A stretch of 37,524 nucleotides of DNA, taken from IMG/VR virus record IMGVR_UViG_3300045106_000019, positions 1-37,524 of that record; one strand, 5' to 3'. Below, one piece after another: positions 1,842 to 18,658 of this stretch. Each line of letters begins with the position of its first letter. Position 1 is the first letter of the stretch. The position numbers and the translations under genes were made by a program. This DNA comes from a virus (Duplodnaviria > Caudoviricetes). The notes below the pieces were generated by a model. The model was not told the origin of the DNA. It did no database searches and worked only from the letters and a program-made list of their open reading frames with translations.

Positions 1842-2283
1842 CTGCGTTGCCTCCTTCACGGGCGCGGCGGGCAATTTCGGCATCAAGCATGGCCTGCGCG
1901 GCTTCTTCGGTTTCAGCCTCGACCCAGAAATCGTCGTCGCTGTCTGCGTCATCTGCGGGCGGCAGCGCGGCGCAATACATGACTTCCACGATGCCGCCAC
2001 GCGCGACGGCCACAATTCTCCCGGCGTTTTTCGATGACCAGTCGTAGGCGTTCTGGACGATTTCCTGTGCGCTCTCGCCGCAACAATCCTCGCTGGTATC
2101 GTCTTCCGGCCAATACCACTGACAGCCGTTCAACTTCTTGCGGAGTTCCGCATTATCGGCTTCCAAGGCTTCGAGGCGGGTGGCGGCATCATCCAAGAGC
2201 GCTGCTGTATGCTCAGATGAAGGCCCACCCATGCGGTAGCTTTCAGCGCGCTCGCGCAGCCGTTCCACCAGCTCACTCGACAT
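1834..2283 (-). CDS. Hypothetical phage protein with N-terminal coiled coil
   Basis: 149 aa, LVERLR...LLDDAATRLEALE pattern, SD GGAGG. Confidence 0.7.
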   Translation of the reverse strand: MSSELVERLRERAESYRMGGPSSEHTAALLDDAATRLEALEADNAELRKKLNGCQWYWPEDDTSEDCCGESAQEIVQNAYDWSSKNAGRIVAVARGGIVEVMYCAALPPADDADSDDDFWVEAETEEAAQAMLDAEIARRAREGGNADG

Positions 2284-2842
2284 GGCCAGCCTCCACGGTG
2301 GGGGATGCGGGCGGAAGCGGTAGGGGCTGCCAATGGGTAACCTCTCGCGCTATGCCTCCTGCTCGGAAACATTGTTTTTCCCCATCATAGAAACCGATAC
2401 GGACTCCCCACCCGCCACCTTTACGGCAATCCATGTCGTGAAGATCGCAGTGGCCATTCAAGAAGCAGAGCACGTTCTCGCTATCTTGGCCCTGCTCGCC
2501 CGGCAGCCTGTCACTGACACTGATCCAGCCATTACCCCCACCACCTGCGGAGAGACGGAGCGCGGTGGCGGCTTCCGTGAGCAGATCGGCATTCTCGCTG
2601 TCTTTCAGGTCGCGCCAGTCTGTGGCGGCATTATTCAGCCTCTCCAGTAGACCCGCCACATCAGGCGGCGTTGCGGCTTCGAGGTAGGCGCGGATGGCGG
2701 CTTGGGCTGTTACTCGACAATGATCCTGATAAGACTTCTCGGTTTCCGGGAACGGATAATCGCGGTTCGTACCATCTTCACTCCAACTGGTATCGATAGC
2801 GCTCGCTGCCGCTTCCAGCGCCTTTTCATTGAGATCGGTCAT
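2273..2842 (-). CDS. DUF551 domain protein
   Basis: WISVSDRLP...VTHWQPLPLPP signature. Confidence 0.85.
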   Translation of the reverse strand: MTDLNEKALEAAASAIDTSWSEDGTNRDYPFPETEKSYQDHCRVTAQAAIRAYLEAATPPDVAGLLERLNNAATDWRDLKDSENADLLTEAATALRLSAGGGGNGWISVSDRLPGEQGQDSENVLCFLNGHCDLHDMDCRKGGGWGVRIGFYDGEKQCFRAGGIAREVTHWQPLPLPPASPTVEAGHVE

Positions 2843-3225
2843 GCCCGCACCTTTCTGATGATCTGCTCGGCCGCGGCGATGTCGCCCGAAACCTCGTAGA
2901 GGCGGACGGCCAGTTCAAACGGGTCGATTTCGTGCCGGCGCCAGAAGGCGAGTTCGTCGCCCATAGCGTGCTGGGCTCGATGCTCTGCGGGTGTCATCGG
3001 AAGGACCCAGCAGTCGTCAGGCTTCCGGCCAGCGCCGGTCCAGACCTTTCGATGCAGCGCACTGCCCGCCCGGATATGGCAGGCCTCGCAATCGTAGACG
3101 CCCGAAATCACGCTTGGTAACCGGCGGATGAAGGCCAGATGCCTCGGGTCTTCCAGTCGGCGGGTCTTCTTGCTCGACGGGTCGAGGGTGAAGGCTTGAG
3201 GGTGACGGCGGACAGCATACATCAC
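2839..3225 (-). CDS. DUF968-like putative HNH-type nuclease
   Basis: HLAFIRRLP...EACHIR...KPDDCWVLPM...HRAQH. Confidence 0.75.
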   Translation of the reverse strand: MMYAVRRHPQAFTLDPSSKKTRRLEDPRHLAFIRRLPSVISGVYDCEACHIRAGSALHRKVWTGAGRKPDDCWVLPMTPAEHRAQHAMGDELAFWRRHEIDPFELAVRLYEVSGDIAAAEQIIRKVRA

Positions 3226-4682
3226 GCAATCTCCCCAGCCTCAACACCAACGATACCAGCGATAATCGGCAGCGTGTCGCCGGCCTCCTGCTCTCCGAAA
3301 CAGACCAGCTTGCACTGCTTGACGACGGACAGGGCCTTGTCGCGCGCCAACTGGGTGAGGTTGGCCGGCGCCGTCTTGCGAAGATCGGTAGCGATGGCCG
3401 AGACGAGCTCCTGCTCGCCAAGACCAGTCGCGGCCCAGAGCTGCTTTGCAAGGTCGAGCAACCATGCCCGGTCTTCGGGAGTGAGGTCGGAAGAAGGCGC
3501 GGCCGTTTCCGTGGTTACCTGACCGGTGTTGTCGCCTTCCTCCGAGGTGCCCGATTCATCATCAGGCTGTGAATTGGTGGCAGCAGCGGTTTGAGAGGAT
3601 GGCGTGTCCCCGCCGCTGCTGCCGTCGTCGGGAGAGGGCACCGACGATTGGGAATTGTCTTCGGTCTGGCCGCTGTCAGCCCCGCCAGTGAGCGCAGCTG
3701 TCTCGCGGGCCACAAAGGACTGGTCGAAGCCTTCGCGCGTCTGGAAGGCTTCCTCTGCCCGTGCTTGGGCAAGGCTGTCCCTGAGACTGCCGCCTCCAGC
3801 TTCGTTGATGTCTTCCTTCAACTGGTCGGCAGCGGTGGCTATCGACTTGAAGGTGTCTTTCATAGGCTCAAGCTTGGCCTGTCGCGGCCCGAGCGCTTTC
3901 CACCATTCCAGCAGGGCGCGCATACCGTTGTTGGCTGCAAGCAGGCCTTCGCGCTTTGCGGCTTCAAGCTCTTGGTCGATATCCACCCCTTGGTCAGCCC
4001 ACTGCGCTACCGATTTGCCGACTTCCGGCGTGATCTTTTTTCCGGCCGGAAAGGCGAACTCGAGGTCGCCGGGGCATTTCTGGATGGTCGGGACGTGGGT
4101 TCCCTCCGCCAGCATCATCGAGACAGTCATCTCGTAGATGAACATCTTCTCCTGAACGACAACGAAGCCTTCGTTCACAATCTCGGTTTTGCCGTTGACC
4201 TTGACCTGAGTGACCTTCTCCTTGACCCTGCAGCAGAAGATGAGATGAGCACGGGTCTGCAGAAGCTCGTTCATCAGCTTCTTGTGCCCAGCCTTCGGCT
4301 TAGCCCAGCAATGGAGCCCTGACCGCTTCGTCGATTGCTCGATAGCGTCGGCCTGCTCCAGAACGCCGCCGGTGCCCTCCCACTCATGAGAAATGCTGTC
4401 GACTATGATGGCCTTGTAGCCCGCGTCCTCGAATGTTTTGATCGCCTCGATGTAACGGGCGGACGTGAAAGGCGGGTCCAGATCGATGACATCGAAGCCG
4501 CCGGCCACATCGGCGTAGAACCGGGAGCGCTTGTTCTCAGTGTCGACAAAGCCGATCTTGCCGTTTGGGCCGACGAGCCCGCGAGCGTACAGGATAGCGG
4601 AATAGGTCTTACCGGAGCCCGAGGGGCCGGCAATCGATGTGAGGGTGAACGTCTTTTCGCGGACGGCGCGCTCGATCTTCAT
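3222..4682 (-). CDS. Sak4-like/AAA_24 P-loop ATPase (recombination) with acidic low-complexity linker
   Basis: Walker A GPSGSGKT, VDTE, Walker B IIVDS; adjacent to exonuclease; start MKIERAV overlaps the upstream stop. Confidence 0.8.
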   Translation of the reverse strand: MKIERAVREKTFTLTSIAGPSGSGKTYSAILYARGLVGPNGKIGFVDTENKRSRFYADVAGGFDVIDLDPPFTSARYIEAIKTFEDAGYKAIIVDSISHEWEGTGGVLEQADAIEQSTKRSGLHCWAKPKAGHKKLMNELLQTRAHLIFCCRVKEKVTQVKVNGKTEIVNEGFVVVQEKMFIYEMTVSMMLAEGTHVPTIQKCPGDLEFAFPAGKKITPEVGKSVAQWADQGVDIDQELEAAKREGLLAANNGMRALLEWWKALGPRQAKLEPMKDTFKSIATAADQLKEDINEAGGGSLRDSLAQARAEEAFQTREGFDQSFVARETAALTGGADSGQTEDNSQSSVPSPDDGSSGGDTPSSQTAAATNSQPDDESGTSEEGDNTGQVTTETAAPSSDLTPEDRAWLLDLAKQLWAATGLGEQELVSAIATDLRKTAPANLTQLARDKALSVVKQCKLVCFGEQEAGDTLPIIAGIVGVEAGEIA

Positions 4683-5680
4683 GCTGCGCTCCTGACTTGG
4701 GGAAGTGTGCTGTCTTTCTCGTGGCGGTCGCTCCACCACTGGGGGGCCGACCACGTGAACATGGAATCGCTATAGGTCGGCCAGTCGTTCTCGGCCAAGC
4801 AGCGGGCGAACGTATCGATCGCCCGACGATTGATGCGCATGGCGGTATAGATGTCGCCGTTATCGAGCGGCTTGATGTTGAAGGCGTAAGGCGGCTTCTT
4901 CTCAACGAATAAAAGCACTGCCTGATTGATGTGACCGGTGCCAACTTGCTCCAGCGACGTGATAGCCAGCGCCATCTGCAGAAGGTAGCCTTGGTCCAAG
5001 ATTGACCGGGCGATGCCGCGATGGGAAGCGTCGGCACAGGTCTTCAAGTCTGCGATCACCGTGTCCGACGGAATGCTGTCTGGACGCGACTTCACATAGA
5101 CGCCGGTCTTGTCCTTGACGACTATCGATCGCTCGATGCGACCACGCAGAAGATCGAGTGCGTCACGGTTTCGCGATAATTGCTCCGCGATGCCGTTGAT
5201 GGCCTCGACCTGCGATTTCAGAAGGACGGTCTTGCCTTCGGATTTACGCGCTGCAAGCCATTCCTTGCAGACCGTGGCATTGCCGTTCCACGGCTTCCAG
5301 TCGCCGTCATCGTTCTCATATTTGTCCGGTCGGATGACGTAATCGTCACGGAATCCGTCCTCGCCAAGCAACAGCGTATGTGCCGCTCGACCAAGGATCA
5401 TGGCCTCGGTGTCGTCATCATCCTCGACACGATCAGGGTTGAGATAAGACGTCGCCCAATAGTGAAGGGGCGATTTGTTCTCGATGGTGCGAAGCCCACT
5501 GGAGGAGATCGACGGCGCGATGGTCAACTGACTATGGTACGCCTCCATCGGTATTTTCCGATAGATGCCGGGCTCAGAAATCGGATTACCATCCCAGATG
5601 CGCTCACCGCGGTGACCATGAACAACGCTCTCGGCAATGGCGCCGACGGATTCGAAACGATCGGGTTCAATGCGTTCCAT
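4679..5680 (-). CDS. RecE/exonuclease VIII-like PD-(D/E)XK nuclease (DUF3799-like)
   Basis: YH...ISSSGL, GRAAH, KSRPD...IADLKT, YLLQMA. Confidence 0.85.
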   Translation of the reverse strand: MERIEPDRFESVGAIAESVVHGHRGERIWDGNPISEPGIYRKIPMEAYHSQLTIAPSISSSGLRTIENKSPLHYWATSYLNPDRVEDDDDTEAMILGRAAHTLLLGEDGFRDDYVIRPDKYENDDGDWKPWNGNATVCKEWLAARKSEGKTVLLKSQVEAINGIAEQLSRNRDALDLLRGRIERSIVVKDKTGVYVKSRPDSIPSDTVIADLKTCADASHRGIARSILDQGYLLQMALAITSLEQVGTGHINQAVLLFVEKKPPYAFNIKPLDNGDIYTAMRINRRAIDTFARCLAENDWPTYSDSMFTWSAPQWWSDRHEKDSTLPQVRSAA

Positions 5681-5869
5681 CTACGCAGCCTCCAATTCAT
5701 GTTGGGATTCAGCCTCTCGCGCCAGATCGGTGACGATCTGCGCCGCTTCCTCGCAGGACAGACCGGCAGTCAGGAGCAATTCGTAATCTCGGAACCGGCG
5801 AGCCCATTGACCGTCAGCGCGGGCAAGGCGGGCGAGTTCGATGGTGATGAGTTCGGGAGCGGGGAGCAT
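5681..5869 (-). CDS. Hypothetical protein
   Basis: MLPAPELITIEL..., TGATG coupling to the upstream gene. Confidence 0.55.
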   Translation of the reverse strand: MLPAPELITIELARLARADGQWARRFRDYELLLTAGLSCEEAAQIVTDLAREAESQHELEAA

Positions 5870-6633
5870 CAGAGTGACCCCTCCGGCTGATATTCCGGCT
5901 CGGGGAAGTACTCTTCCAAGCGTTTCCGCCAGAAATCGCGGCTCTCGTGCCACTGCGGTCCGACACTTTCTTTGACGACAGGATCGCGGTTCTGCTCGAT
6001 ATACTCGTCCAGCGCATCCGGCGTCGTGTGCAGCCCGAGCCGGCGCTGGACGCCGCCATCATCAAGCCTCCCGGCCTCGCGAAGTTCGTAAAGCGCCGTC
6101 TGGAAAGCTTCATAAAGGCCCCGATAGTGGCCGGTCTCGACTTTGCGCCATCGGTAATAATCGTCGCGAGCCCGATGGACTTCCTCAGCCTTATTCAGGC
6201 GCTCGACTGCACGGCCGATGGCAACTGCATAGATTTGCTGCTGCACCTTCGTCAGAAATTCGCGGCGGTCGCCATCGTTGAAACCGGGTGAAGCGTACTG
6301 CTCCGACATCTTGTAGACCAAGGCGGCGCGTGCCTCGTCGTCTGCCATGATGCCCTCGGCCAGTTCCTCCGCCGAAATGCGCTCAAGGATGAACCCGACA
6401 AGATCCTCAATCGGCAGGGTGATCGCGCCATCGCTAACGCTCATATTAGGGAAGTGCTTGCCGGGGTCGCTCGTTGCATAATATTTCCGGCGTGCCGTGA
6501 CCTCGCCATCTTCCCAGACGGTGATGTCGAAATCATTCAGAGAGTGGACCTTGCCCTTGCGCTCGCCATTGACGATCTCGTGGTCAACCTTGAGCGTAGA
6601 CGGGCGGTCCTGATAGCGGCTGAGGAACATCAC
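5869..6633 (-). CDS. Hypothetical protein
   Basis: 254 aa ORF coupled on both sides within the operon. Confidence 0.75.
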   Translation of the reverse strand: MMFLSRYQDRPSTLKVDHEIVNGERKGKVHSLNDFDITVWEDGEVTARRKYYATSDPGKHFPNMSVSDGAITLPIEDLVGFILERISAEELAEGIMADDEARAALVYKMSEQYASPGFNDGDRREFLTKVQQQIYAVAIGRAVERLNKAEEVHRARDDYYRWRKVETGHYRGLYEAFQTALYELREAGRLDDGGVQRRLGLHTTPDALDEYIEQNRDPVVKESVGPQWHESRDFWRKRLEEYFPEPEYQPEGSL

Positions 6634-6872
6634 GCTGCCCTTTCTTTGATCGCCAACGCCTGCTTCCGCTGCTCACGGCGGAACTTGTGGCGGGACCATT
6701 CCTTTGAAATCATGCGGTGTCGGACTTCCGCGATCAGGTCGTCGGAGAGCCAGGACAGGTCGAGTGCGCCGCGCCGGTACAGGACATCGAAAAGTGCGTC
6801 CTCGAACGTGTTTCGTCCGTTGTGGGTGTAGTTCGCCAGCTTGATCTGGTGTTCGTGGCGGGGGCGGGTCAT
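6630..6872 (-). CDS. Hypothetical protein
   Basis: 80 aa, ATGA/GTGA overlaps with neighbours. Confidence 0.7.
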   Translation of the reverse strand: MTRPRHEHQIKLANYTHNGRNTFEDALFDVLYRRGALDLSWLSDDLIAEVRHRMISKEWSRHKFRREQRKQALAIKERAA

Positions 6873-7117
6873 TCTGCGCTCTCCGACTCTGATACCCCAT
6901 GCAGATCGACAGATTTTCCGGCTTCCGTCACACGAAGCCGGCGGCGGTCGTAGCGCTCAACAAAGCCAAGCCGCTCCAGTTTCGACCATGTTCCGCGCAT
7001 GACTCCGGCGCGCTCACCGCCGGCGAGAAGAACTTGGCCGGGGCCGGCAAAGACACCGTCGCTGTTTCGATTGCGAAGCCACTTCAAAGCGGCGAGTTGG
7101 GAAGGTGTCGCGCTCAT
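6869..7117 (-). CDS. Hypothetical winged-helix-like protein
   Basis: TPSQLAALKWL...TWSKLERLGFVE...VTEAG. Confidence 0.7.
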   Translation of the reverse strand: MSATPSQLAALKWLRNRNSDGVFAGPGQVLLAGGERAGVMRGTWSKLERLGFVERYDRRRLRVTEAGKSVDLHGVSESESAE

Positions 7118-7518
7118 GCCGCCCTCCGCACGTCACGCACCCGGCGCTGCAAAAGCTCGTCCTCGTCCACCCAAGACCCGAACTTGGCATAGGCATTGGC
7201 CAGAGACATCGCCGCCTTGCGGTTGATCGGAACTATGGTGTCGAGCGCTTGCTGGCGGAGGAATTCCCGGCCCACATATGCCGCGTCGATCGCGTCAAGG
7301 ATCGGCTTGCCCCGATTAAGCTCGTACGGCAGGTCAGAAGCGCGGGCGGACGAATACGACGCGGTGGTCCAGTACACGGCCCGGCCCGAAGCTGCGGCCT
7401 CGATGGCCTGCTCCAGCATGATCGTGTCTTCGTTCTGATACACCGCCACCGCCGCCAGCAAGTCCCGGCGCACCTTCATCGGCGTATCGGCAAGGTAGTC
7501 CCGAGCGTGGATGTTCAT
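7114..7518 (-). CDS. Hypothetical protein
   Basis: 134 aa, GGAGG SD. Confidence 0.7.
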   Translation of the reverse strand: MNIHARDYLADTPMKVRRDLLAAVAVYQNEDTIMLEQAIEAAASGRAVYWTTASYSSARASDLPYELNRGKPILDAIDAAYVGREFLRQQALDTIVPINRKAAMSLANAYAKFGSWVDEDELLQRRVRDVRRAA

Positions 7519-7532
7519 CTGTCCATCCTCCG

Positions 7533-7811
7533 TCAGGCGTCGAGTGCGAATGCGCGATGCTCCGCCTGCTCACAGGCACGGAAGTCGCGATCAGCCTGCC
7601 GGCAGACAGCAGCCAAGTCGCGGTCGAAAGGAGCGTGCTGAACTTCGGCCATCACCTCATCGAGCAACGCCGCAAAGGCATCGTCGGACATCCCGTGCAA
7701 ACCAGTGCCGCAGGAAAATCCTATGTAGGCATCGCACAGTGCAGCTACGTCATCCGTGCCTGTGTGACCGCTGGATTTCGCGTAAATTGCGATTTTCTGG
7801 ATGAAGGTCAT
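7533..7811 (-). CDS. First gene of the leftward (pL) operon, hypothetical
   Basis: MTFIQKIAIY... with GAGG SD, about 60 nt downstream of the pL candidate. Confidence 0.65.
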   Translation of the reverse strand: MTFIQKIAIYAKSSGHTGTDDVAALCDAYIGFSCGTGLHGMSDDAFAALLDEVMAEVQHAPFDRDLAAVCRQADRDFRACEQAEHRAFALDA

Positions 7812-7872
7812 CGTTCTGTTTCCTCTCAAGTCCACCAGATCGGCCGGAGGCTTCTTCGTGGTGGGGATGAGC

Positions 7873-7903
7873 GGTATATCGCAGAAAATGCGATGACATG
7901 CAA
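7873..7903 (-). promoter_or_regulatory. pL-like promoter
   Basis: Minus strand TTGCAT-N17-GATATA(C) with an operator in the spacer; mirrors the pR architecture. Confidence 0.6.
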
Positions 7904-7927
7904 GAGGAGTATCGAAAAAAATGCGAT
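7878..7927. promoter_or_regulatory. OL operators (7878-7894 ATCGCAGAAAATGCGAT; 7911-7927 ATCGAAAAAAATGCGAT)
   Basis: 17-bp palindrome ATCGCA-N5-TGCGAT shared with three sites between cI and cro. Confidence 0.85.
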
Positions 7928-7957
7928 ACGGCATTGCGACGGATTTCGGGCCGTGGC

Positions 7958-7993
7958 AAAAGAAAAGCCCCGGCGGGATGATCCGACCGGGGC
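7958..7993 (-). terminator. Rho-independent terminator insulating pL (timm-like)
   Basis: GCCCCGG...CCGGGGC stem followed on the minus strand by TTTTCTTTT. Confidence 0.75.
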
Positions 7994-8029
7994 GCGCAGC
8001 ATATAGATAACTGACCGCTTATGTATCAG

Positions 8030-8490
8030 AACATGACCGGATCGACAACGAAAAACAGGCCTGCGCGGCGTGAAAATCGCAACATCTTGTGTCTGCTCGG
8101 AGGCTCCCGGCAAGACGTAGCGGTTCAAGCGCGCAAAGCGACGGTCTTCAGGGGATTTTGCCCCGTCGCGCCGATCATCCGGTGCATGAATTTCCCAACC
8201 GCTGCCGATGGCGGGAATCACCGGACGAACCTGACGGGGAGTGGAGCGCCCGTCCTCGATCAACGCTTGCTGCGTGAGGAATAAACCCAGCCACCTTTTC
8301 ACACCATTGTTGAGTTTCGATATCGGCGCGTTCCGTTCGCACCGCTGGACAGGCGGGAGGATGCCGGTGAAGGGCAGATGGGCACTGCCAAATCAAATGC
8401 TAGGCTGGGTGCATATCAGGTTCATGGATGCTTGGTCGGTGCGACGGACGCCGGCAGGAATGGACGGCCTTCGGTGTGTGAAGGACGCTC
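8030..8490. ncRNA. Candidate large structured non-coding RNA or cis element
   Basis: No protein-like ORF; many nested stems (8091-8116, 8138-44/8163-69, 8178-84/8219-25, 8233-38/8249-54, 8337-44/8437-44, 8373-77/8385-89) and a possible pseudoknot 8285-92/8403-10. Confidence 0.35.
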
Positions 8491-8531
8491 CTTTTCGAGA
8501 CCTATGGAGAAAACGTAGAAAGGAAGGCGCT

Positions 8532-8897
8532 ATGCGCGTGCTGATTTGCGGCGGAAGGGATTTCGGAACGAAAGAGCACGAGCGGCTTTGGGCGCTTTCC
8601 GAGCTTTCGCGCCTTCATTCCGAAATGCGGTTCACCGAGATTATCGAGGGCGGGGCTCCCGGTGCCGATGCCGGGGCGCGCATCTTCGGGGATATTGCGG
8701 GCGTGCCTGTCAAAACCTATCGCGCCAACTGGTTCAAGCACGGTCGAGCCGCCGGCCCGATCCGAAACCAACGCATGATCGATGAAGGCAAGCCCGATCT
8801 GGTTATTGCCTTTCCCGGCGGTCGCGGTACGGCCGACATGGTTGGGCGGGCGCGCAAGGCGGGGATTAGGGTCGTGGAGATTTCTCCCGCCAGATAG
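8532..8897 (+). CDS. SLOG superfamily protein (DUF2493/YspA-like)
   Basis: MRVLICGGRDF...IIEGGAPGAD...AGPIRNQRM...VIAFPGGRGTADM; AGGAAGG SD. Confidence 0.85.
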   Translation: MRVLICGGRDFGTKEHERLWALSELSRLHSEMRFTEIIEGGAPGADAGARIFGDIAGVPVKTYRANWFKHGRAAGPIRNQRMIDEGKPDLVIAFPGGRGTADMVGRARKAGIRVVEISPAR

Positions 8898-8990
8898 AGG
8901 CGGGACATCACGTTGGGTCGGATTACATAATATCCTATTGTAATTTTTGGCTTTTTCGTATCTGGCGACGAACGAGTTACATAAGGAGAA

Positions 8991-9176
8991 TCAGATTTTT
9001 TTCGGTGACTGGCTTGACCGAAATGTGAAGTAGAACCGTGCATCTACCTCGACTTTCATCAGGTCGCGAGTCTGCGGTTTCCGAGCTCCTTTCTCACCGT
9101 CCTTCTGGATGTAGGAAGGCCTCCCCGGCAGAGAGGATCGCTTTACGTATTCGCTCGGACGGTTCTTCACCTTCAT
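8991..9176 (-). CDS. Small basic hypothetical protein downstream of the kinase
   Basis: 61 aa; ATG lies 2 nt after the kinase stop. Confidence 0.4.
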   Translation of the reverse strand: MKVKNRPSEYVKRSSLPGRPSYIQKDGEKGARKPQTRDLMKVEVDARFYFTFRSSQSPKKI

Positions 9177-9178
9177 GA

Positions 9179-10222
9179 TCAGAAGTCCACGAAGAGCTTT
9201 TTAAGCTCCTTGTCGTTGATGCTGTCCCTACATAAGTCTCTCATACGACGTCGGGTTCCGCCACCCGTGGTTTTGTAGCCCACGCAACCTCCATCCGCGT
9301 TCAGGACGATTTCCAGCTCCGTCCCATCTATAACTTTGGTCCAGAGCTTCGAGCTGTCTTGTATTTGCAAACGCCAATCCAGGCAGGGTCCATCAATGCC
9401 AGCGATAGCATTCGCCACATCAATGGCTGACCCGTATCGGTTTGCTGGGTCGACTTCGAGGCAGCGCCTTATAACGTTGCGCAGAGTGGACGGGATATGT
9501 GGCAAAAATGAAGACCTGTCCGGAAACCTCCCATTCCTGACATCGAACTGGAAAGCGGCGCGGTCAAAATCGTCCGGAGGCCCGTATTTGGCGAACTGGT
9601 CGTTGAAGTGCGCGTTGCCATTCGCCATGCGGTAGAGTGTCAAACCTACCTGATAGATATCGAACCTGCGATCAAAATGGTCTGTCCTTGTCGCTTCTGG
9701 CGGGATCATCTTGCCGTAGAGTCTGTCCTGGGCGGCGATGCCAGAGAAGTTCATCTGCTTGGCCTGGCCGAAGTCGGATACCAGCGCCTCTCCCCTTTCT
9801 GACAGAAGGATGTTGTCGGGCTTGATGTCGAAGTGGATTAGGTTCTTCGAGTGGATGTTGTGAAGCCCGGCGAGAACTTGGCAGCCCATGGCTATGATCT
9901 CACGGACGGTGAGGTGCCGCTCAGCCATCAGATTTTTGACCGATCCGTTGCTGTAGTAAGGCATGGCGACATAGACATGATCGTCATCGAAGCATGCGTA
10001 GTGCACCTGCACGACATTAGGATGCGCGCTAGCATAAAGGGCTTTGGATTCCGCAAAGAATTCGTCAGGGGAGTTAAGGCTTGCCTTGCGTAGCCGCTTG
10101 GCGACGATTTCGGCGTTCAATTGATGGTCGTGTGCGACAAAGGTATGTGAGTTCTGGCCATCGTGGCCGATCTCCCGGATAATGTCGAACGTGAGTTCCG
10201 CCTTGTGGTAGGGCTTAAGCAT
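9179..10222 (-). CDS. Hanks-type Ser/Thr protein kinase (non-RD)
   Basis: VAK, alphaC Glu, HPNVV, IHFDIKPDN, DFG, PPE, DIYQVG, conserved Arg in PANRY; start MLKPYHK overlaps the upstream stop. Confidence 0.93.
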   Translation of the reverse strand: MLKPYHKAELTFDIIREIGHDGQNSHTFVAHDHQLNAEIVAKRLRKASLNSPDEFFAESKALYASAHPNVVQVHYACFDDDHVYVAMPYYSNGSVKNLMAERHLTVREIIAMGCQVLAGLHNIHSKNLIHFDIKPDNILLSERGEALVSDFGQAKQMNFSGIAAQDRLYGKMIPPEATRTDHFDRRFDIYQVGLTLYRMANGNAHFNDQFAKYGPPDDFDRAAFQFDVRNGRFPDRSSFLPHIPSTLRNVIRRCLEVDPANRYGSAIDVANAIAGIDGPCLDWRLQIQDSSKLWTKVIDGTELEIVLNADGGCVGYKTTGGGTRRRMRDLCRDSINDKELKKLFVDF

Positions 10223-10670
10223 GCTCAGCCCCCATAGCGCAGAGGATTGCTTCCCTTGCCGCTTTTGACATTTTTTCCCAGTTCTCGACGCCGGGATATT
10301 CATCCCCGTCTACTAACGGCCTGAATTGCTTCCTGTTGATGCCAAGGCGGCCAGAGATCGAAGCTATCTGGCCCACATAGTAAGAGTGGAGCGTTGAACT
10401 GGCGAAAGCTTCTTGGATGACGCCTTCGATCTGGATGCGCTCGATGTTCGCTGACTGAGCGATTGATTCTGTCACGCGTATTCCTGCGCGCTCAATTTCG
10501 TATTCGCGCATGATATCGAGCAGGTTTGAACGGATGTATTTGAGAGCGTCCGGTGTCGCGAAGGCAGCGGGCACTTTCAGTTCTTCGACATTCAGAACGG
10601 CTTTCGCCGCGGTGTCGAAGACCGCAAAGGTGACCGTCTTTGGCGCGGCACGAATTCCGATTGTCTTCAT
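10215..10670 (-). CDS. Putative RNase H/RuvC-like fold protein lacking the first catalytic Asp
   Basis: MKTIGIRAAPKTVTFAVFD three-strand start, LLDIMREYEIERAGIR, ERIQIEGVIQ, C-terminal REAILCA helix; starts 20 nt after the cI stop. Confidence 0.6.
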   Translation of the reverse strand: MKTIGIRAAPKTVTFAVFDTAAKAVLNVEELKVPAAFATPDALKYIRSNLLDIMREYEIERAGIRVTESIAQSANIERIQIEGVIQEAFASSTLHSYYVGQIASISGRLGINRKQFRPLVDGDEYPGVENWEKMSKAAREAILCAMGAEHA

Positions 10671-10690
10671 CCCCCAAGCCCTCCCCAGAG

Positions 10691-11356
10691 CTACGCTGTT
10701 TTTAAGCCAAGTTGCCCCTGAATGCCGCCTTGCCTTTCGACCTTCCTCAATGCGGCCGGCGGCAGTACCGCGAAAATCTCGCCTATCCATTCCAGTTTCT
10801 GATCCTCGATCGGCATGGGGTCGTTCCACGACGTGAGGGTAACCGTTCCCGGCCTGCTGCCCTTTGTGATCGTTTTGATGAAGCGCCGACCTTCCGCCGT
10901 CCGAACCGCCGCCTCCATACCGTAAAAGGATTCGATCGGCTTCTTTTGCTCGCGGTAGACGACGATCACGGTCCCGGGTTTGAACACTGGCATCATGGAA
11001 ATGCCGCTAACGATGAAGGCAACCATATCGTCGGGGACGGGAAAGGGGAGTAGAACCTGGTCCAGACCTTCCGGCGGCACCTGCTCGAAATCCGGCTCCA
11101 CTTCCGCGCCGGCGCCGAGATAGCCCATGATCGGGACTTCGGCGCTGCTCGGCTCGTCGGTGGCGTCTGGATTTCGATAGAGGTCGTCCGGCTCCACGCC
11201 TAGAGCGTCTGCCAGCGGGATTTCCCGCTTCGGCATAATGCGCGTGTGGCTGTTCTCGATTCGGCTGATCGTCTGCCACTGGACGCCGATGGCATCCCCT
11301 AGATCGGCTTGGGTCCAGCCCTTCGCCTCGCGCAACTCTTTCACCCGATTTTTCAT
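10691..11356 (-). CDS. cI: CI-like repressor (XRE HTH plus S24 autopeptidase)
   Basis: LREAKGWTQADLGDAIGV HTH; GAG cleavage site; GISMMP Ser and FIK Lys; divergent from cro. Confidence 0.92.
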   Translation of the reverse strand: MKNRVKELREAKGWTQADLGDAIGVQWQTISRIENSHTRIMPKREIPLADALGVEPDDLYRNPDATDEPSSAEVPIMGYLGAGAEVEPDFEQVPPEGLDQVLLPFPVPDDMVAFIVSGISMMPVFKPGTVIVVYREQKKPIESFYGMEAAVRTAEGRRFIKTITKGSRPGTVTLTSWNDPMPIEDQKLEWIGEIFAVLPPAALRKVERQGGIQGQLGLKTA

Positions 11357-11375
11357 GCGACTACCGATAGCAAGC

Positions 11376-11441
11376 ATCGCAAAAAATGCGTATCGCAGGA
11401 AATGTGATATTTGGCGTTGACGATATCGCATAAACTGCGAT
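11376..11441. promoter_or_regulatory. OR operators (11376-11392, 11392-11408, 11425-11441)
   Basis: ATCGCAAAAAATGCGTA, ATCGCAGGAAATGTGAT, ATCGCATAAACTGCGAT. Confidence 0.85.
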
Positions 11442-11445
11442 ATAC
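11417..11445 (+). promoter_or_regulatory. pR-like promoter
   Basis: TTGACG-N17-ATATAC with a perfect operator in the spacer, upstream of cro. Confidence 0.7.
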
Positions 11446-11470
11446 AGGCTTCGACAAACGGAGCCGATGC

Positions 11471-11716
11471 ATGTCTCTCACCCTCAAAGATTGGCGCGAA
11501 GCAAAGGGCTGGAATACCCAGCGCCTTGCGGAAGAGCTTGGCCTCGATGAGAAGGCCGGCCCCGGAACCGTCTGGCGTTGGGAGACTGGCCGCAGCCGCC
11601 CGGATGCCGACGTGATCGCCAAGATCGAGGAAATCACCGCGGGCGAAGTTACCGCCAGCGAGATGCATGAGACCCGGCTGGCATTCCTCCGCTCGAAAGA
11701 GGGAGAAGCCGCATGA
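11471..11716 (+). CDS. cro: Cro-like XRE HTH regulator
   Basis: LKDWREAKGWNTQRLAEELG...TVWRWETGRSRP; GGAG SD. Confidence 0.88.
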   Translation: MSLTLKDWREAKGWNTQRLAEELGLDEKAGPGTVWRWETGRSRPDADVIAKIEEITAGEVTASEMHETRLAFLRSKEGEAA

Positions 11717-12612
11717 GCATCCAGTTCGCAACCGATCCGGCACCGGTGGTTGATCGTGTCGAGCAAACTCCTCCGGTCGGCGTTCGTTGGCACGAATATG
11801 CCGACATATTCCCTTGGATTGAGGGACCGGCGTTTGAGGAATTGAAAGCCGACATCGCCAAGAACGGTGTTCTCGAGCCGATTGTGTTCCTCGACGGAGC
11901 GATCCTCGACGGTCGCAACCGCTATATGGCGGCGAGGGCGCTCGGCATCGAATACCCCCGTGTCGAATACACCGGCGGTGATCCACTTGGTTTCGTCATC
12001 AGCCACAACCTGCAACGCCGGCACCTGACCGAAAGTCAGCGGGCGATGGTGACGGCGAAACTGGCCAAGTTGCCAAAAGGTCGCCCGGCAGAAAATACCG
12101 AAATTTCGGTATTTAAACCAACGCAAACCGAAGCGGCGAAGATGCTGAATGTCAGTGTCGACAGCGTGCAGTTTGCGAGGAAGGTTCAGGAACAAGGTAC
12201 ACCAGAACTTGCCCGCGCAGTCGAGGAAGGCAAGGTCAGTGTCTCTGCTGCTGCCTCGATTGTCGATCAGCCGCCCGAGGTTCAACGAGAAGTCGTCGCG
12301 CAGCCGAACGTCAAGAAGGCCGTTTCCGAACTTCGGAAATCGGTTCTCGAAGCGGCGAAGCAGGGCGCGGCCGGCGGCTCGGAGCAGTCGAACAAAAACC
12401 CCCACTATCAGGCTCCGACAAAAGCGGGTGAGGCGTGGACCAAGCTCTACGGCTCCTGCCGCGCGCTCGCTGAATGGGCGTCTGACGAAAACATGCTGCT
12501 GGCACTGCATGGCAAGGCGGAGCGCACCGACGATCAGACCGCAAACGTTGCCGCGATCCAGAAGGCAGCCGACGCGCTCACCAAGTTCCTCGGAGACATC
12601 AATGCTCAGTGA
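11713..12612 (+). CDS. ParB/Srx N-terminal domain protein with HTH
   Basis: LKADIAKNGVLEPI...ILDGRNRYMAA; NLQRRHLT; TQTEAAKMLNVS. Confidence 0.85.
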   Translation: MSIQFATDPAPVVDRVEQTPPVGVRWHEYADIFPWIEGPAFEELKADIAKNGVLEPIVFLDGAILDGRNRYMAARALGIEYPRVEYTGGDPLGFVISHNLQRRHLTESQRAMVTAKLAKLPKGRPAENTEISVFKPTQTEAAKMLNVSVDSVQFARKVQEQGTPELARAVEEGKVSVSAAASIVDQPPEVQREVVAQPNVKKAVSELRKSVLEAAKQGAAGGSEQSNKNPHYQAPTKAGEAWTKLYGSCRALAEWASDENMLLALHGKAERTDDQTANVAAIQKAADALTKFLGDINAQ

Positions 12613-13045
12613 CAAGCTTTCCCTCTTCTATCAGAAGGTGAACGAAGCGGTTGCGATCTATGGCCTCGACGCCAAGTCCGTCGCGGACGCGGTAATCACG
12701 GAAGCCTTTCCCGACACTATGGCGGCCGCTGGCCATGAAGGCGCGGATACTATGCTGAGGAATGGCGTGATTGCCTTCCTGTCCGCGTATTTCAAGCGCG
12801 CGCCGAAGATGGACCCGGCACAGCTTGAATTCGATATCCCCGCAACCCTCACACCGATCGTTTCGAAGCTCAAGAAAGAGGCGCACTACGTCGAGAAGCT
12901 TGGGCAATACGTCCCGGTTCACCTGCTGATCGCTAACCTCGACTGGCTGGACGATGCCCGCCGCTACAAGCGTCGCAAGGGCAACGAGACGTTGGCGGAA
13001 GCGGACGTGCTGGACGAACTCTTTGAAGCCGTCTCGAAGGAATAG
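12602..13045 (+). CDS. Hypothetical protein
   Basis: MLSDKLSLFY..., GGAG SD, overlaps the end of the ParB-like gene. Confidence 0.7.
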   Translation: MLSDKLSLFYQKVNEAVAIYGLDAKSVADAVITEAFPDTMAAAGHEGADTMLRNGVIAFLSAYFKRAPKMDPAQLEFDIPATLTPIVSKLKKEAHYVEKLGQYVPVHLLIANLDWLDDARRYKRRKGNETLAEADVLDELFEAVSKE

Positions 13046-13051
13046 GCGGCC

Positions 13052-13513
13052 ATGATCGCTCCCATCCGCCGCGCCGGCCTGAAAGACGAGTTGCTGGCCT
13101 TTGTGGCCCGCTATCCGAAGGCAACCCCGCGTCAGGTCGCCAAGGCTCTGAACTGCCGGGAAGAATATGTGCGTGCCACGGCAAGCCGGCAGGGCATCAA
13201 GCTCAAGGTCAGGGCGAAGAAGAAGGCTGGAGCCAACTCCCCAGCGACTGTCTCTAAGCCCCGTGTCAGGATCAAAGAATTCCACGGGACCCCTGAGCAG
13301 TACGATGCCTTGGCTCGCAAGGTCTCGCTCATTGACCTCGGGCCGCGCGATTGCAAATGGCCGGTTGGCGATCTGAGGGATGCCGATTTCGGCTTCTGCG
13401 GACATGTGAGAACTCCGGGCAAACCCTATTGTGCTCACCATCAGAAGCGAAGCGAAGGGCCGGGAACGCGCGGTGAGCGTGCTGCGACCTCGATCAAGCG
13501 GGTGGCGGCATGA
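13052..13513 (+). CDS. gcrA: GcrA-like transcriptional regulator
   Basis: N-terminal HTH plus C-terminal LIDL...CKWPVGD...FCG...PYCAHH. Confidence 0.8.
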   Translation: MIAPIRRAGLKDELLAFVARYPKATPRQVAKALNCREEYVRATASRQGIKLKVRAKKKAGANSPATVSKPRVRIKEFHGTPEQYDALARKVSLIDLGPRDCKWPVGDLRDADFGFCGHVRTPGKPYCAHHQKRSEGPGTRGERAATSIKRVAA

Positions 13514-13713
13514 ACACACTCGTTCAATTCGCCGGCGACGATCAGCGCCCACGCGCCAAGCCATCGGCATACGCTCTGTTCCTAATGGGCCTCGATACCG
13601 TCGAGATTGCCGAGCGGATTGGTGTTTCAGAAGCCGTTGCTTCCCGGCGCGTCTATGTCCAGCGCTGCCGTGAAAAGGGCCTTCCGGTTGAGACGGAAAG
13701 GCGTTCGGCATGA
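13510..13713 (+). CDS. Small HTH protein
   Basis: GLDTVEIAERIGVSEA; coupled to neighbours. Confidence 0.7.
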   Translation: MNTLVQFAGDDQRPRAKPSAYALFLMGLDTVEIAERIGVSEAVASRRVYVQRCREKGLPVETERRSA

Positions 13714-13907
13714 GCGTCTGGATCGACCTGTTTATCGCCCTATCGCCGCTTGTATCCGGCGTTGCTGGCTATCTGCTCGGTGGGGCCGCAGCGCGCCGCC
13801 AGATCGGCAAGCGTGAGGCTGCCCGGCGCGATCTTTCTGCCGAGCTTCGGAGCCATGTTGACCTTGAGCAGTGCGAGTTCACCCGTGACTGGCGGGTGAG
13901 GCCATGA
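13710..13907 (+). CDS. Small membrane-anchored hypothetical protein
   Basis: Hydrophobic N-terminus, ATGA coupling. Confidence 0.55.
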   Translation: MSVWIDLFIALSPLVSGVAGYLLGGAAARRQIGKREAARRDLSAELRSHVDLEQCEFTRDWRVRP

Positions 13908-14094
13908 GAACGGGTCATCATCATTGTCAGCCCTTCGCCGTCCCCAATCGGGGAACGGCAGTACCAGTTGCCGCGCTCTCGTCTGTTCTTGGCGGTTCGG
14001 AAAAGAGCGCATTCATCATTCCCTTTCTTCCCTTCGAGATCGAGCCGTTCAGGCCTGACCTCCACGCTGATCAGACTACGCGTGGAGATGTTCT

Positions 14095-14487
14095 ATGTCC
14101 GACAAAAGATGTGTCGAAACCGACACGAAGCGTGGCGGAGGCGTCATGAGTACCGCAGTGCAAGAGAGCGTCGTGTTCCTCAACGCGCTCGCCAAGGCCC
14201 ATCACCGGGGCAGGGGCGATACGTGGGGCGCGGCGCGAGACAGGGCGGCGAAGTCGGCGGGTGTCGAGCCGTCCTACGCCAAACGCATATGGGACCGCTG
14301 GCAGACGATGAACGATGTGTCGGGCGAGGCATATCGCCGGCTTCGGACCGCGTACGAGCGAGCCTGTGAAGCCAACGAGGAAGCAGCCGACCGCAACGAC
14401 GCGGAACGGCTCGCAATGAGGAAATCCCATGCGGTTGATCAGAAGCCTGCTTCGGCGGGCCGTTTCGAGGACGAGGCTCGAAATTGA
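14095..14487 (+). CDS. Hypothetical protein, possible HTH regulator (alternative start 14146)
   Basis: RAAKSAGVEPSYAKRIW; SD-like motifs before both ATGs. Confidence 0.65.
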   Translation: MSDKRCVETDTKRGGGVMSTAVQESVVFLNALAKAHHRGRGDTWGAARDRAAKSAGVEPSYAKRIWDRWQTMNDVSGEAYRRLRTAYERACEANEEAADRNDAERLAMRKSHAVDQKPASAGRFEDEARN

Positions 14488-14637
14488 GCGGGCCCGGTAC
14501 ACGCCCCGGCGAATGATTATCGGGGCCGTAGCAGTCGCATCAGTTCTGTTCCTGGCTTCGGTTGTTTTCGGAGCCGACGAGTTCACCGGCCTGAGTGGCA
14601 GGCCAACAGTTCAACGAGCCAATGCAGGGTCTTGGTG

Positions 14638-15408
14638 ATGGCTGAAAACAGCAAGATCGAATGGACGGATCACACGTTCAACCCTTGGATCGGGTGCACG
14701 AAAGTCTCACCGGCCTGTGATGGTTGTTACGCCGAAAACCTCATGGCGAACCGCTATGGCCGGGTGCGGTGGGGCGCTGGCGAAGATCGGCAGCGGACCA
14801 GTCTTGCGAACTGGCGGAAGCCTCTGGCTTGGAACAAGGCCGCAGCGGGCAAAGCCGAGCCCACGTTCGTCTTCTGCGCCAGCCTCGCTGACGTGTTCGA
14901 CAATGAGGTCGATGATCGTTGGCGTCATGATCTGTTCGCCCTTATCGAAGAGACGCCGAACCTCACTTGGCTGCTTCTGACGAAACGGATCGGAAACGTC
15001 ATCAAGATGACCGATCCGGCGCGCGGGAATCCTGTGCTGCCACGCAACGCTGCCATCGGCGCCACCCTTCCCAACCAGTTCGAATACGACCGTGACCGCA
15101 TGAAACTCCGGGAGGTCAAGGAGCGGCTGGACCCGGCTTTCACCTTCGGAAGCTTCGAGCCTCTGCTTGGTCCCGTCATCCTCGACAAGTTCGCGCCTGA
15201 CTGGATCATCACGGGCGGCGAGACAGATCAGGGGCAGCATAAGGCGCGCGATGCCGACCCCGCATGGTTCCGATCCCTCATGCGCCAGTCGAGCGATCTC
15301 GGCCGTGCGTTCTTCATGAAGCAGATGACGCGCAAAGCGCCGATCCCGAACGATCTGCTCGTCCGGCAGTGGCCCGTCCTCAATTCAAAAGAAAGGACGC
15401 CAGCATGA
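14638..15408 (+). CDS. Phage Gp37/Gp68 (DUF5131) family protein
   Basis: SKIEWTDHTFNPWIGCTKVSPACDGCYAE, LLTKR, SFEPLL, WIITGGE, FFMKQ. Confidence 0.92.
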   Translation: MAENSKIEWTDHTFNPWIGCTKVSPACDGCYAENLMANRYGRVRWGAGEDRQRTSLANWRKPLAWNKAAAGKAEPTFVFCASLADVFDNEVDDRWRHDLFALIEETPNLTWLLLTKRIGNVIKMTDPARGNPVLPRNAAIGATLPNQFEYDRDRMKLREVKERLDPAFTFGSFEPLLGPVILDKFAPDWIITGGETDQGQHKARDADPAWFRSLMRQSSDLGRAFFMKQMTRKAPIPNDLLVRQWPVLNSKERTPA

Positions 15409-15626
15409 CCAGCGACCGTTTCTGGATGGTCTATGGCGCGGGGCAGGGTGCTCCCACGGCCAGACACAAGTCTTTCGACAGTGCGCGTACCGAAGCGGAG
15501 CGGCTGGCCCGAATGGTCCCGGGTGTCCGCTTCTTCATTCTCGAAACCGTCGGTGCCGTTGAGAAGGTCGATGTCCAATTCATCGATCTGCGGCCCCGCG
15601 ACCTTGATGACGAAATCCCATTCTGA
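15405..15626 (+). CDS. Hypothetical protein
   Basis: MTSDRFWMVY...DDEIPF acidic tail; AAGGA SD. Confidence 0.7.
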   Translation: MTSDRFWMVYGAGQGAPTARHKSFDSARTEAERLARMVPGVRFFILETVGAVEKVDVQFIDLRPRDLDDEIPF

Positions 15627-15637
15627 GGAGCCCCGAC

Positions 15638-16192
15638 ATGAACGCTGGACACAACAGCCGCGAACTGACCGAGCTTGAGGAAAAGGCTCTGTTCTTCGAT
15701 TGCGTGCGCAAGGACATCGCGCATCAGGCGAAGATCAAGGAACTGCAGGACGCGAGGAAGGCGGACCGCAAGATCGCCCAATCCTACAACATCGTCCTTG
15801 CCGATATGGATTACGCGATCCGCGCCATGAACGCGGACGACAAGGGCACCATCACCGCCCGCCATCTCCAGCAGTCCAAGATCAACTTCTGGCTCGGGCT
15901 CACCTCTGGATACCAGTCGGACCTCTTCGTCGATCGCGCTCCCGGTCTTGAGAAGATCGAGAAGGAAGGCGAGCGCGCAGGTTATCTCGCAGCGGAGCGT
16001 CCCGGCCCATACGCGAAGGGATCTGATGAGGCGGAGGCATGGGACCGCGGCTACGACCGAGCGCAGGCTGTCGTGCGGGACAATCTCGAAGCCGCAATGA
16101 CCAAGGCGAACACAGCGGCCGACCAGACTGGTTCGCAGGAGCACATAGCCGGCCACGACGCCGACGATCCGTTTGCCGAAGCTGCGGAGTAA
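15638..16192 (+). CDS. Hypothetical protein (GapR-like N-terminus and Rmf-like motif, tentative)
   Basis: GHNS start plus coiled coil; EGERAG...PY...AWDRGY; GAGGAG SD. Confidence 0.7.
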   Translation: MNAGHNSRELTELEEKALFFDCVRKDIAHQAKIKELQDARKADRKIAQSYNIVLADMDYAIRAMNADDKGTITARHLQQSKINFWLGLTSGYQSDLFVDRAPGLEKIEKEGERAGYLAAERPGPYAKGSDEAEAWDRGYDRAQAVVRDNLEAAMTKANTAADQTGSQEHIAGHDADDPFAEAAE

Positions 16193-16197
16193 GTCCT

Positions 16198-16299
16198 GTG
16201 TCTCCGCAAACCCGTCGCCTGTTCTTCATCAACTGCATCTGGGGGCTGGCCGTGACCTCGGCCTATGCCTTCGTGATTATCATGACGGTGGTGAGATGA
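16198..16299 (+). CDS. 33-aa single-TM microprotein
   Basis: GTG start after GGAG; hydrophobic; ATGA coupling to the helicase. Confidence 0.4.
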   Translation: MSPQTRRLFFINCIWGLAVTSAYAFVIIMTVVR

Positions 16300-17672
16300 G
16301 CATCCATCCCGATTATCGGCAGTTTTTGAGCCGAAAGGTTCATGAAGGCGCGGACACCGGTTTCGAGCCGACGTTCATGCCGTCCGATCTTTTCGACTTC
16401 CAGAAGGCAATGGTCACCTATGCAGTCGAGAAAGGCCGCGCAGCGCTTTTCGAGGATTGTGGCCTTGGCAAGACTGTCCAATTCCTGACTTGGTCGCAGA
16501 ATGTGGTGGAGCACACCAATCGGCCGGTGTTGGTGATCGCTCCGTTTGCAGTCGCTACGCAGATCGTGAGAGAGGCAGCGAAGTTCGGCATCGCGGCCGA
16601 GCGGTCTTCCGACGGCACATTCACAGGGAAGATCGTTGTCACCAACTATGAACGGTTGCCGGCCTTCAACCCTGCGGACTTCGCCGGCGTGGTGTGTGAC
16701 GAAAGCTCCATCCTGAAATCATTCGATGGCGCGCGTCGGGCAGAGATTACCGACTTCATGCGCAAGGTGCCGTATCGCCTTCTGGCGACCGCGACGGCCG
16801 CCCCGAACGACTATATCGAACTCGGCACGTCCTCCGAGGCCCTTGGATACATGGGCCACATGGACATGCTGAACCGGTTCTTCCGCAATGACCAGAACAA
16901 CAGCGCGACCCGACGCATGTACGGCGAGGCGCCCAAGTGGCGGTTTAAGGGGCATGCCGAGACGCCGTTCTGGCGGTGGGTGTGTTCGTGGGCACGGGCG
17001 ATGCGGAAGCCGTCCGATCTCGGGTTTGCTGACGGTGGTTTTGTCCTCCCGGCTTTGGTCGAAAACCAGCATCTGGTCGAGGTCGATAGCCTTCCGAACG
17101 GCATGCTGTTCAATCTGCCGGCTGCAACGCTCCCCGAACAGCGCGAAGAGAAGAAGCGGACGATCAAGGTTCGCTGCGAACGTGCGGCCGAGCTGGCCTC
17201 GCATGATCGCCCGGCCATCGTCTGGTGCCAATTCAACGAGGAAGCCGACCTTCTCGAGCAAATGATCCCCGGCGCAAAGCAAGTATCCGGGTCACAGGCC
17301 GACGATCTGAAGGAAGGTCGGTTGATGGGGTTCGTTGACGGCGACTTTCGCGTCCTTGTCACGAAGGCGCGCATCGCGGCGCTTGGCTTGAATTTCCAGC
17401 ACTGCGCGCATGTGGTCGATTTCCCGTCGCACTCCTACGAGCAGTATTACCAAGGCGTCCGCCGGTGCTGGCGCTTCGGCCAGTCGAAATCCGTCGTGGT
17501 CGATACCGTCCTGACGGAAGGCGAGCGCAAGATCATCGAGAACCGCCAGCGCAAGGCCGAAGCCGCGCGGGCGATGTTCGACAACCTGATTTCCGAAATG
17601 AACAACGCCATCGCCGTGGACACGTCGCGGGCGTTCGACAAGGCTATGGAGGTTCCGGCATGGGCGGCGTGA
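16296..17672 (+). CDS. SNF2/SF2-type helicase
   Basis: CGLGKT, DESS, TAT, GLNFQ, QGVRRCWRFGQ. Confidence 0.9.
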   Translation: MSIHPDYRQFLSRKVHEGADTGFEPTFMPSDLFDFQKAMVTYAVEKGRAALFEDCGLGKTVQFLTWSQNVVEHTNRPVLVIAPFAVATQIVREAAKFGIAAERSSDGTFTGKIVVTNYERLPAFNPADFAGVVCDESSILKSFDGARRAEITDFMRKVPYRLLATATAAPNDYIELGTSSEALGYMGHMDMLNRFFRNDQNNSATRRMYGEAPKWRFKGHAETPFWRWVCSWARAMRKPSDLGFADGGFVLPALVENQHLVEVDSLPNGMLFNLPAATLPEQREEKKRTIKVRCERAAELASHDRPAIVWCQFNEEADLLEQMIPGAKQVSGSQADDLKEGRLMGFVDGDFRVLVTKARIAALGLNFQHCAHVVDFPSHSYEQYYQGVRRCWRFGQSKSVVVDTVLTEGERKIIENRQRKAEAARAMFDNLISEMNNAIAVDTSRAFDKAMEVPAWAA

Positions 17673-18658
17673 TCGATCAGGTCATCGCGGACAATTACGC
17701 GATTTACAACGGCGATTGCGTCGACGTGATGCAGGGCCTTCCGGCGGAAACTGTGCACCTGTCGGTGTACTCGCCCCCCTTCGGCGGCCTTTACCACTAC
17801 TCCAGCGACGAGCGCGATCTGTCGAACTGCCGGGACTATGACCAGTTCTTCGAGCATTACGAATATGTCGTTCGTGAGATCGCCAGGATCACGATGAGAG
17901 GCCGGTGTTCGGCCGTGCACTGCATGGACGTTCCGACGGGAAACACGGGGTCGGATGCCTATATCGACTTCCCCGGCGACATAATCCGCCTTCACCAGCG
18001 CATGGGCTTCGATTTCATCTGCCGGCACGCGATCTGGAAAGAGCCGCTCTGGGTTCGCAACCGGACCATGCAGAAAAACCTCGCGCACAAGACGGCCGTG
18101 GACGATAGCACCAAGTGCGGAGTGGCGTCGGCCGACTATCTCCTGATTTTCCGAAAGCGCGGCGAAAACCCGATCCCTGTGTCTCATCCGACTGGCTTCC
18201 TCGAATATGCGGGCGACGACAGCAAGATGCCGGTGGACGTTCGTCGGCTTCGCGGCTTCGAAGGTGACCAGAAACGGAACAAGTTCTCGCACTGGATCTG
18301 GCGTCGCTATGCGTCCTCGATCTGGGACGACATCCGCATGGGGCACGTCTTGCCCTACGTCGAGGCGAAGGAAGAGGATGACGAAAAACACGTCCATCCG
18401 CTCCAACTCGACGTGATCGACCGTGTTGTGCAGATGCGCTGCAACCCCGGCGAGACGGTCTTCACCCCCTTCATGGGTGTTGGATCGGAAGTCTATTCCG
18501 CCGTTACTAAGGGTCGCCGCGGTATCGGCGCTGAGCTTAAGGCCAGCTATTTCAAGCAAGCAATGCGGAACTTGGCCGGTGCGAAATTCGGTGACCGCAT
18601 CGCGCCGCCTGTGCAGGAGGACATTTTCAGCGCCGCGCAGGATAGCGAGGCCGCGTGA
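17660..18658 (+). CDS. N4-C/N6-A DNA methyltransferase (beta class)
   Basis: GDC...SPPF catalytic motif before PFMGVGS...GAEL SAM-binding motif. Confidence 0.9.
   Translation: MGGVIDQVIADNYAIYNGDCVDVMQGLPAETVHLSVYSPPFGGLYHYSSDERDLSNCRDYDQFFEHYEYVVREIARITMRGRCSAVHCMDVPTGNTGSDAYIDFPGDIIRLHQRMGFDFICRHAIWKEPLWVRNRTMQKNLAHKTAVDDSTKCGVASADYLLIFRKRGENPIPVSHPTGFLEYAGDDSKMPVDVRRLRGFEGDQKRNKFSHWIWRRYASSIWDDIRMGHVLPYVEAKEEDDEKHVHPLQLDVIDRVVQMRCNPGETVFTPFMGVGSEVYSAVTKGRRGIGAELKASYFKQAMRNLAGAKFGDRIAPPVQEDIFSAAQDSEAA

Follow-up and report, generated by a model that had tools for sequence, protein, structure and literature searches.

A three-gene kinase module behind cI in a lambdoid phage, a very probable ortholog of the phage 933W Stk operon

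The three-gene cassette identified here between the cI repressor gene and the left operator of a lambdoid phage is an added member of a known, under-described system. Its first two genes encode a 151-aa protein of RuvC fold (A) and a 347-aa Hanks-type kinase (K) which, on sequence evidence, are almost certainly orthologs of L0083 and Stk of phage 933W, and a small basic protein (C) is encoded behind them. An earlier interpretation of the same DNA from its letters alone (the sequence-only reading) had rightly proposed that a kinase cassette of the anti-phage kind is linked to cI, but had recognized no named system in the pairing and cited the 933W kinase as a positional analogy only; given the orthology to L0083-stk, the pair largely matches a system already described. 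Exclusion by Stk reportedly dates from 2011 and was described in a single phage; Stk has hitherto been cited as a single-gene system. The three-gene linkage names two candidate regulators, and what is new here is the three-gene view across phyla together with a motif map of C, which make the regulation of Stk testable in harmless hosts.

Locus layout and comparison with phage 933W

The window (the whole stretch analyzed, a virus record of 37.5 kb that is 67% complete) has a lambdoid layout with exonuclease, cI/cro, helicase, terminase, portal, head and tail genes, and no DNA-level match was found in annotated phages. The cI gene (10691..11356, minus strand; HTH_3 and Peptidase_S24 domains, start read off the sequence) stands at the head of the presumed pRM transcript and is divergent from a cro-like HTH gene (11471..11716, plus strand; start codon picked by eye). 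It is followed on the minus strand by gene A (10215..10670; phrog_3875), gene K (9179..10222; phrog_2361) and gene C (8991..9176; 61 aa). The positions and spacings given in the sequence-only reading were all correct, with a gap of 20 nt between cI and A, an overlap of 8 nt between A and K and the start of C 2 nt past the K stop. An operator-like palindrome, ATCGCA-N5-TGCGAT, was derived from repeats in the window, and a repeat and palindrome scan located three copies between cI and cro (OR, 11376..11441), two at the left operator (OL, 7878..7927) and a third, weaker one at 7777-7793. These clusters hold six of the eight matches; chance alone would give 3.2 matches, and eight were reached by 2 of 100 shuffles. 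The cassette thus sits between cI and OL, as previously read, with operator-like palindromes on both sides. Its GC content, correctly perceived as lower than that of the flanks, is 53.6% versus 60.2% in the rest of the window, and 2 of 359 same-size windows were equally low.

On the strand of the cassette, a scan for sigma-70 promoters and terminators came up empty both at pRM and past C. Contigs from four of six RNA-labelled ant-metagenome runs span most of positions 2000-21900, with coverage alike over the early, immunity and replication regions, a pattern that speaks neither for nor against transcription. A SLOG gene (YAcAr, PF10686, E 8.5e-13; 8532-8897, plus strand) occupies part of the interval from the cassette to OL, in convergent orientation to the cassette, and was absent among the homolog neighbors scanned at 33 loci. 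The host of the virus is probably alphaproteobacterial; the kinases nearest to K in the family tree are mostly from this class.

When 50,697 annotated phage records were searched with A, 41 matched, namely 39 Escherichia/Stx phages and two SPbeta-like Bacillus phages, and the 41 best phage matches of K fell in the same 41 records (E <=1e-64; next match 2e-30). The same 10 plasmid records were likewise the top matches for both proteins. The matches in 933W are L0083 for A (37% identity over 150 aa, E 4e-36) and stk for K (38% over 336 columns covering residues 1-330, E 9e-79, C-terminal domain included), in the order cI-L0084-L0083-stk-L0081-tM. The A/K junction is overlapping in both loci, by 8 nt here and 7 nt in 933W, and the TGA-TC-ATG junction ahead of the small ORF, with its 2-nt gap, is identical. 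In a midpoint-rooted tree of 41 family kinases, built with no outgroup, Stk was nested within the family. Full-length matches of A and K, gene order, junctions and tree nesting all argue that the cassette is orthologous to the L0083 (res)-stk-L0081 operon of 933W and phi24B, beyond the analogy of their common site between cI and the left operator. It differs from the 933W operon in belonging to a different phage, in an identity of just 37-38%, in the absence of L0084 from the interval between cI and A, in its Gly-loop (GHDGQNS here, EEQGCFS in Stk) and in a third gene product without significant similarity to L0081. C resembles L0081, of which it is the positional equivalent, in position, size, charge and junction; homology to L0081 was not significant (HMM score matched by 106 of 200 shuffles; hhalign E 0.069, with 9 of 60 shuffles as high), nor was homology to SPbeta gp71.

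Excerpts of the published work describe Stk as a eukaryote-like tyrosine kinase that is activated on HK97 infection and is barely active, if at all, in uninfected cells (PMC3681748), that shares a transcript with cI and causes infections by HK97 to abort (PMC3564112, PMC6356687), and whose gene is expressed under the control of pRM (PMC3430580). The corresponding excerpts on phi24B report a protein P2 of 17,096 Da in lysogens, identified from 2D-PAGE gels at a modest score, which displayed a cI-like pattern with differences that were not significant by ANOVA (PMC3342100), and levels of res and stk that were unaltered by induction (PMC4651098). Since the mass calculated for L0083 is also 17,096 Da, P2 would be L0083, the ortholog of A. 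Among the listings and starts of abstracts covered by a literature search, none pointed to a study of L0083, of L0081 or of the three genes as a unit.

Linkage, selection and distribution of the three genes

The co-occurrence of the pair was confirmed by survey, as K directly follows A in 126 of 126 loci with room downstream (129 loci with A in all). Past K, an ATG-initiated ORF of 40-85 aa was present in 103 of the 112 loci with sufficient room (one of them spurious), and the remaining nine comprised six with a small ORF starting at GTG, recognized by eye, and three with broken kinases. From the kinase side, among the best 80 of 93 viral loci, many of them 933W-like duplicates, A was found upstream in 78/78 and a small ORF downstream in 79/79 (36 distinct). 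All three genes are under purifying selection, with pN lower than pS for each of them in 14 of 14 pairs examined, which makes C a real gene and upholds the earlier inclusion of the 61-aa ORF in the unit. The pairwise distances of the three genes correlate across 34 loci (r 0.77-0.91, a value that ignores relatedness). The unit is a three-gene module. As weak evidence, the 7,997 candidates of 308-2000 aa that were scored included no fusion of A.

Homologs of A grouped into 614 clusters at 90% identity, a number that fell to 441 at 50%, and the module was found in prophages, Tn7-like elements and plasmids of Pseudomonadota, Cyanobacteriota and Bacillota, a linkage that supplies conserved residues for mutation. 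Its distribution is patchy, as 401 genomes of the class to which one seed genome (G003) belongs yielded just that genome and one weak match, and two distant A homologs used as queries retrieved no viral loci. Looking up to 1.5 kb upstream, we detected a cI gene at 55 of 81 viral loci, compared with 1 of 33 loci from genomes and none of 42 from metagenomes, using a cI profile built from the window and six of the surveyed loci. The 150 ORFs scanned around 33 loci were mostly housekeeping genes or genes without assigned function; in a raw tally without background set, defense-type genes occurred near L002, L012, L016, L024, L026, L027 and L034, and HipA at L011. Tn7-like TniQ/TniB genes lie beside the module at L010, L027 and L034.

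Several individual loci are worth recording. The module adjoins a type I-F CRISPR-associated transposon module at L034 and a type I restriction-modification system at L027, and on a Mesorhizobium plasmid (L048, 1221-4486) it follows, in the same orientation, a DUF4433 and macro-domain pair that we take to be DarTG-like. The B. subtilis phages SPbetaL6 and SPbetaL7 carry the A-K pair, annotated as hypothetical (L039, 4001-5759), with a 60-aa ORF behind it in SPbetaL7.

The kinase, the small basic protein and related systems

K is a non-RD kinase (Pkinase, E 3.4e-37) with intact catalytic motifs, GHDGQNS, VAK Lys42, Glu58, HFDxKPDN and DFG all being present. The Gly-loop had been read correctly but is not unusual, since its key residues G19, G22, N24 and S25 are invariant in 32 K homologs; judged from these alignments, it is a family signature. 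Tyr169 occupies, in 144 of 145 distinct family kinases, the GT-motif Thr position of Ser/Thr kinases; this fits a non-canonical specificity and makes Tyr169 a candidate autophosphorylation site. With that substitution, and with an ortholog reported as a tyrosine kinase, the Ser/Thr label attached to K in the sequence-only reading is doubtful. The additional C-terminal domain that it had noticed was recovered at residues about 283-347 as a small beta domain, confidently predicted to have four strands plus a helix. Neither this domain nor C could be assigned to a named family in the ESM Atlas, and Foldseek with the whole kinase returned generic kinases only. Atlas proteins of 120-186 aa that resemble the C-terminal domain (window 9179-9385; TM 0.82-0.85) may be fragments or stand-alone forms.

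C is basic (pI 10.4) and carries two motifs, KxKNxPxxYxxRS and FxxAxIDxxxYxxF, joined by a variable linker. Among 109 distinct non-enterobacterial C proteins, Arg13 is conserved in 104, Tyr49 in 91, Asn5 in 87 and Tyr10 in 82. The Atlas model of C has low confidence (pLDDT 0.46), as expected for a disordered peptide, and C is probably largely disordered. Prediction of a complex of K, A and C scored 0.77 with C as the partner and 0.69 for a control, values too close to speak for or against binding.

The rexAB genes of phage lambda form a lysogen-expressed exclusion system located behind cI. The cassette shares this position and, presumably, the logic of exclusion expressed in the lysogen, and differs in that the effector is a membrane channel in Rex and a kinase here; A, K and C had no match to the Rex family in Pfam, NCBIfam or PHROGs. 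Hanks-type kinases also operate in phage defense in Stk2 of Staphylococcus, KKP, PD-T4-6 and MADS6. K resembles Stk2, a single gene according to the available excerpt (PMC11341870), in the kinase domain only (E 1.8e-10 over 92 aa), and scored 105 bits against the NCBIfam MADS6 model, whose cut-off is 460. The models of Stk2, PD-T4-6 and MADS gave kinase-domain matches only, with neither a full-length match nor the partners. The cassette contains no phosphatase, second kinase or MADS partners, and A and C had no match to a phosphatase family, so that the two kinases plus phosphatase of KKP were not found. In PADLOC the first gene has no model, with 0 of 112 A homologs matching below E 0.001, and surveys with that library would miss the family.

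The RuvC-fold protein and the proposed mechanism

A begins with MKTIGIR and has a model of high confidence (pLDDT 93.7) for which RuvC is the best match (Foldseek E 2e-9; Z 18.8, rmsd 2.6, 147 aligned), in agreement with the RuvC-like topology read from its sequence, although sequence searches with A gave no match in PDB, Pfam or PADLOC. The strand-1 Asp is essential in RNase H-fold nucleases. We located this and the other RuvC motifs in A at presumed positions, which agree with those of the phage's own resolvase, and found the Asp replaced by Arg7 in 139 of 141 distant homologs, so the suspected loss of the catalytic Asp was real; Arg7 likely fills the metal site. Glu68 and Glu140, placed at RuvC acidic positions by motif and secondary structure, are kept in 144 of 148 and 127 of 135 homologs, position 137 is variable, and the acidic tetrad that starts at the strand-1 Asp of RuvC is absent. 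A therefore has in common with RuvC the full-length fold, the strand-4 Glu and one helix acid, and departs from it in the first catalytic residue, in an acidic pI (6.15; 6.6 in L0083) and in standing always upstream of a kinase.

The phage also has a RuvC-like resolvase of its own (18655-19230, plus strand) with intact-looking LGLD, IVIE and DDMADA motifs, flanked by two DNA methyltransferase genes (17465-20426, plus strand). A profile comparison of A with this protein was not significant, and the link between A and resolvases is structural only, as modeled. The presence of a separate resolvase with normal motifs, along with the non-basic pI of A, makes it unlikely that A serves the phage in that role. 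We infer that A has lost nuclease activity and acts as a regulatory subunit or as a scaffold.

The reading that we favor, and consider reasonably probable, is that the cassette causes abortive infection through its kinase, with A, a dead nuclease, as regulator, C as a labile brake or bridge, and a rival phage bringing about release. An anti-phage function is likely by analogy with 933W. The specific gating scheme of a toxic kinase restrained by two partners is offered more tentatively. The cassette would likely be co-transcribed with cI in the lysogen, and toxic K would be held off by A and C until a protein of a rival phage acts. C, a short and presumably labile two-motif peptide, may serve as a bridge within the complex or as its inhibitor; once C is displaced or decays, or once the phage protein binds, K would be released, and freed K would phosphorylate host proteins and arrest the cell. 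Expression, activation and killing would be as in 933W, by extrapolation, and the gating roles of A and C are our deduction. Against the favored reading, non-viral copies mostly do not lie behind cI, most of the neighboring ORFs scanned are not defense genes, the similarity of C to L0081 is not significant, and cloned stk reportedly may suffice for exclusion, in which case the partners would be accessory. The MAG locus L037, with a frameshifted A and an intact kinase, counts against an indispensable antitoxin role of A, an antitoxin having been among the suggestions of the sequence-only reading, unless the frameshift is an artifact of assembly. A more ambitious version, as a joint claim rather doubtful, would see in Stk no lone kinase but the effector within a widespread immune complex of three parts, in which the dead RuvC senses intermediates of phage recombination or replication, or phage proteins bound to them, and the disordered two-motif C acts as a pseudo-substrate brake on a bacterial Hanks-type tyrosine kinase.

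The structures closest to A are true RuvC resolvases, junction-bound ones included, and Arg7, Arg47 and Arg78 are almost invariant among its homologs, as might suit a nuclease-dead sensor of Holliday junctions or branched DNA, of the sort suggested in the sequence-only reading, that activates K when an invading phage replicates or recombines, with C as inhibitor. We regard such a sensor as unlikely, however, since A is not basic, four Glu are conserved along with these Arg, as would fit buried salt bridges, and a shared fold proves no function; moreover, the trigger of 933W Stk is said to be a phage protein, HK97 Orf41.

A different role, that of a toxin-antitoxin or signaling unit that stabilizes its element or tunes lysogeny and host physiology, with exclusion as a side effect, would accord with the tight translational coupling of the genes, their patchy distribution and their carriage on plasmids and Tn7-like elements, and KKP offers a parallel in a kinase module that, in the excerpt available, joins prophage control to defense (PMC11341870). 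Such a unit is nonetheless quite improbable, as abortive infection is the sole reported phenotype of the ortholog and the pattern of broken genes gives no sign of addiction: both genes were intact at 146 of the 155 distinct loci, the kinase alone was broken at seven, both genes at one and A alone at one, counts that fit gene length and are thus uninformative on addiction, by a criterion that overlooked end frameshifts in L020 and L026. Least probable is an active effector nuclease switched by phosphorylation, with a rearranged site built from the well-kept Glu68 and Glu140 and perhaps Glu82/Glu87, given the Arg at the strand-1 Asp site and the variability of the other helix acid.

Abortive infection by a restrained kinase, the favored reading, can be pursued in versions of the module outside pathogens, namely those of this phage, of Bradyrhizobium and of the B. 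subtilis phages SPbetaL6 and SPbetaL7. Elsewhere in the window, two HNH endonuclease genes (21856-22530 and 30421-30945) and a 383-aa ORF with a weak MazG match (864-2015, minus strand; E 8.5e-4) were observed.
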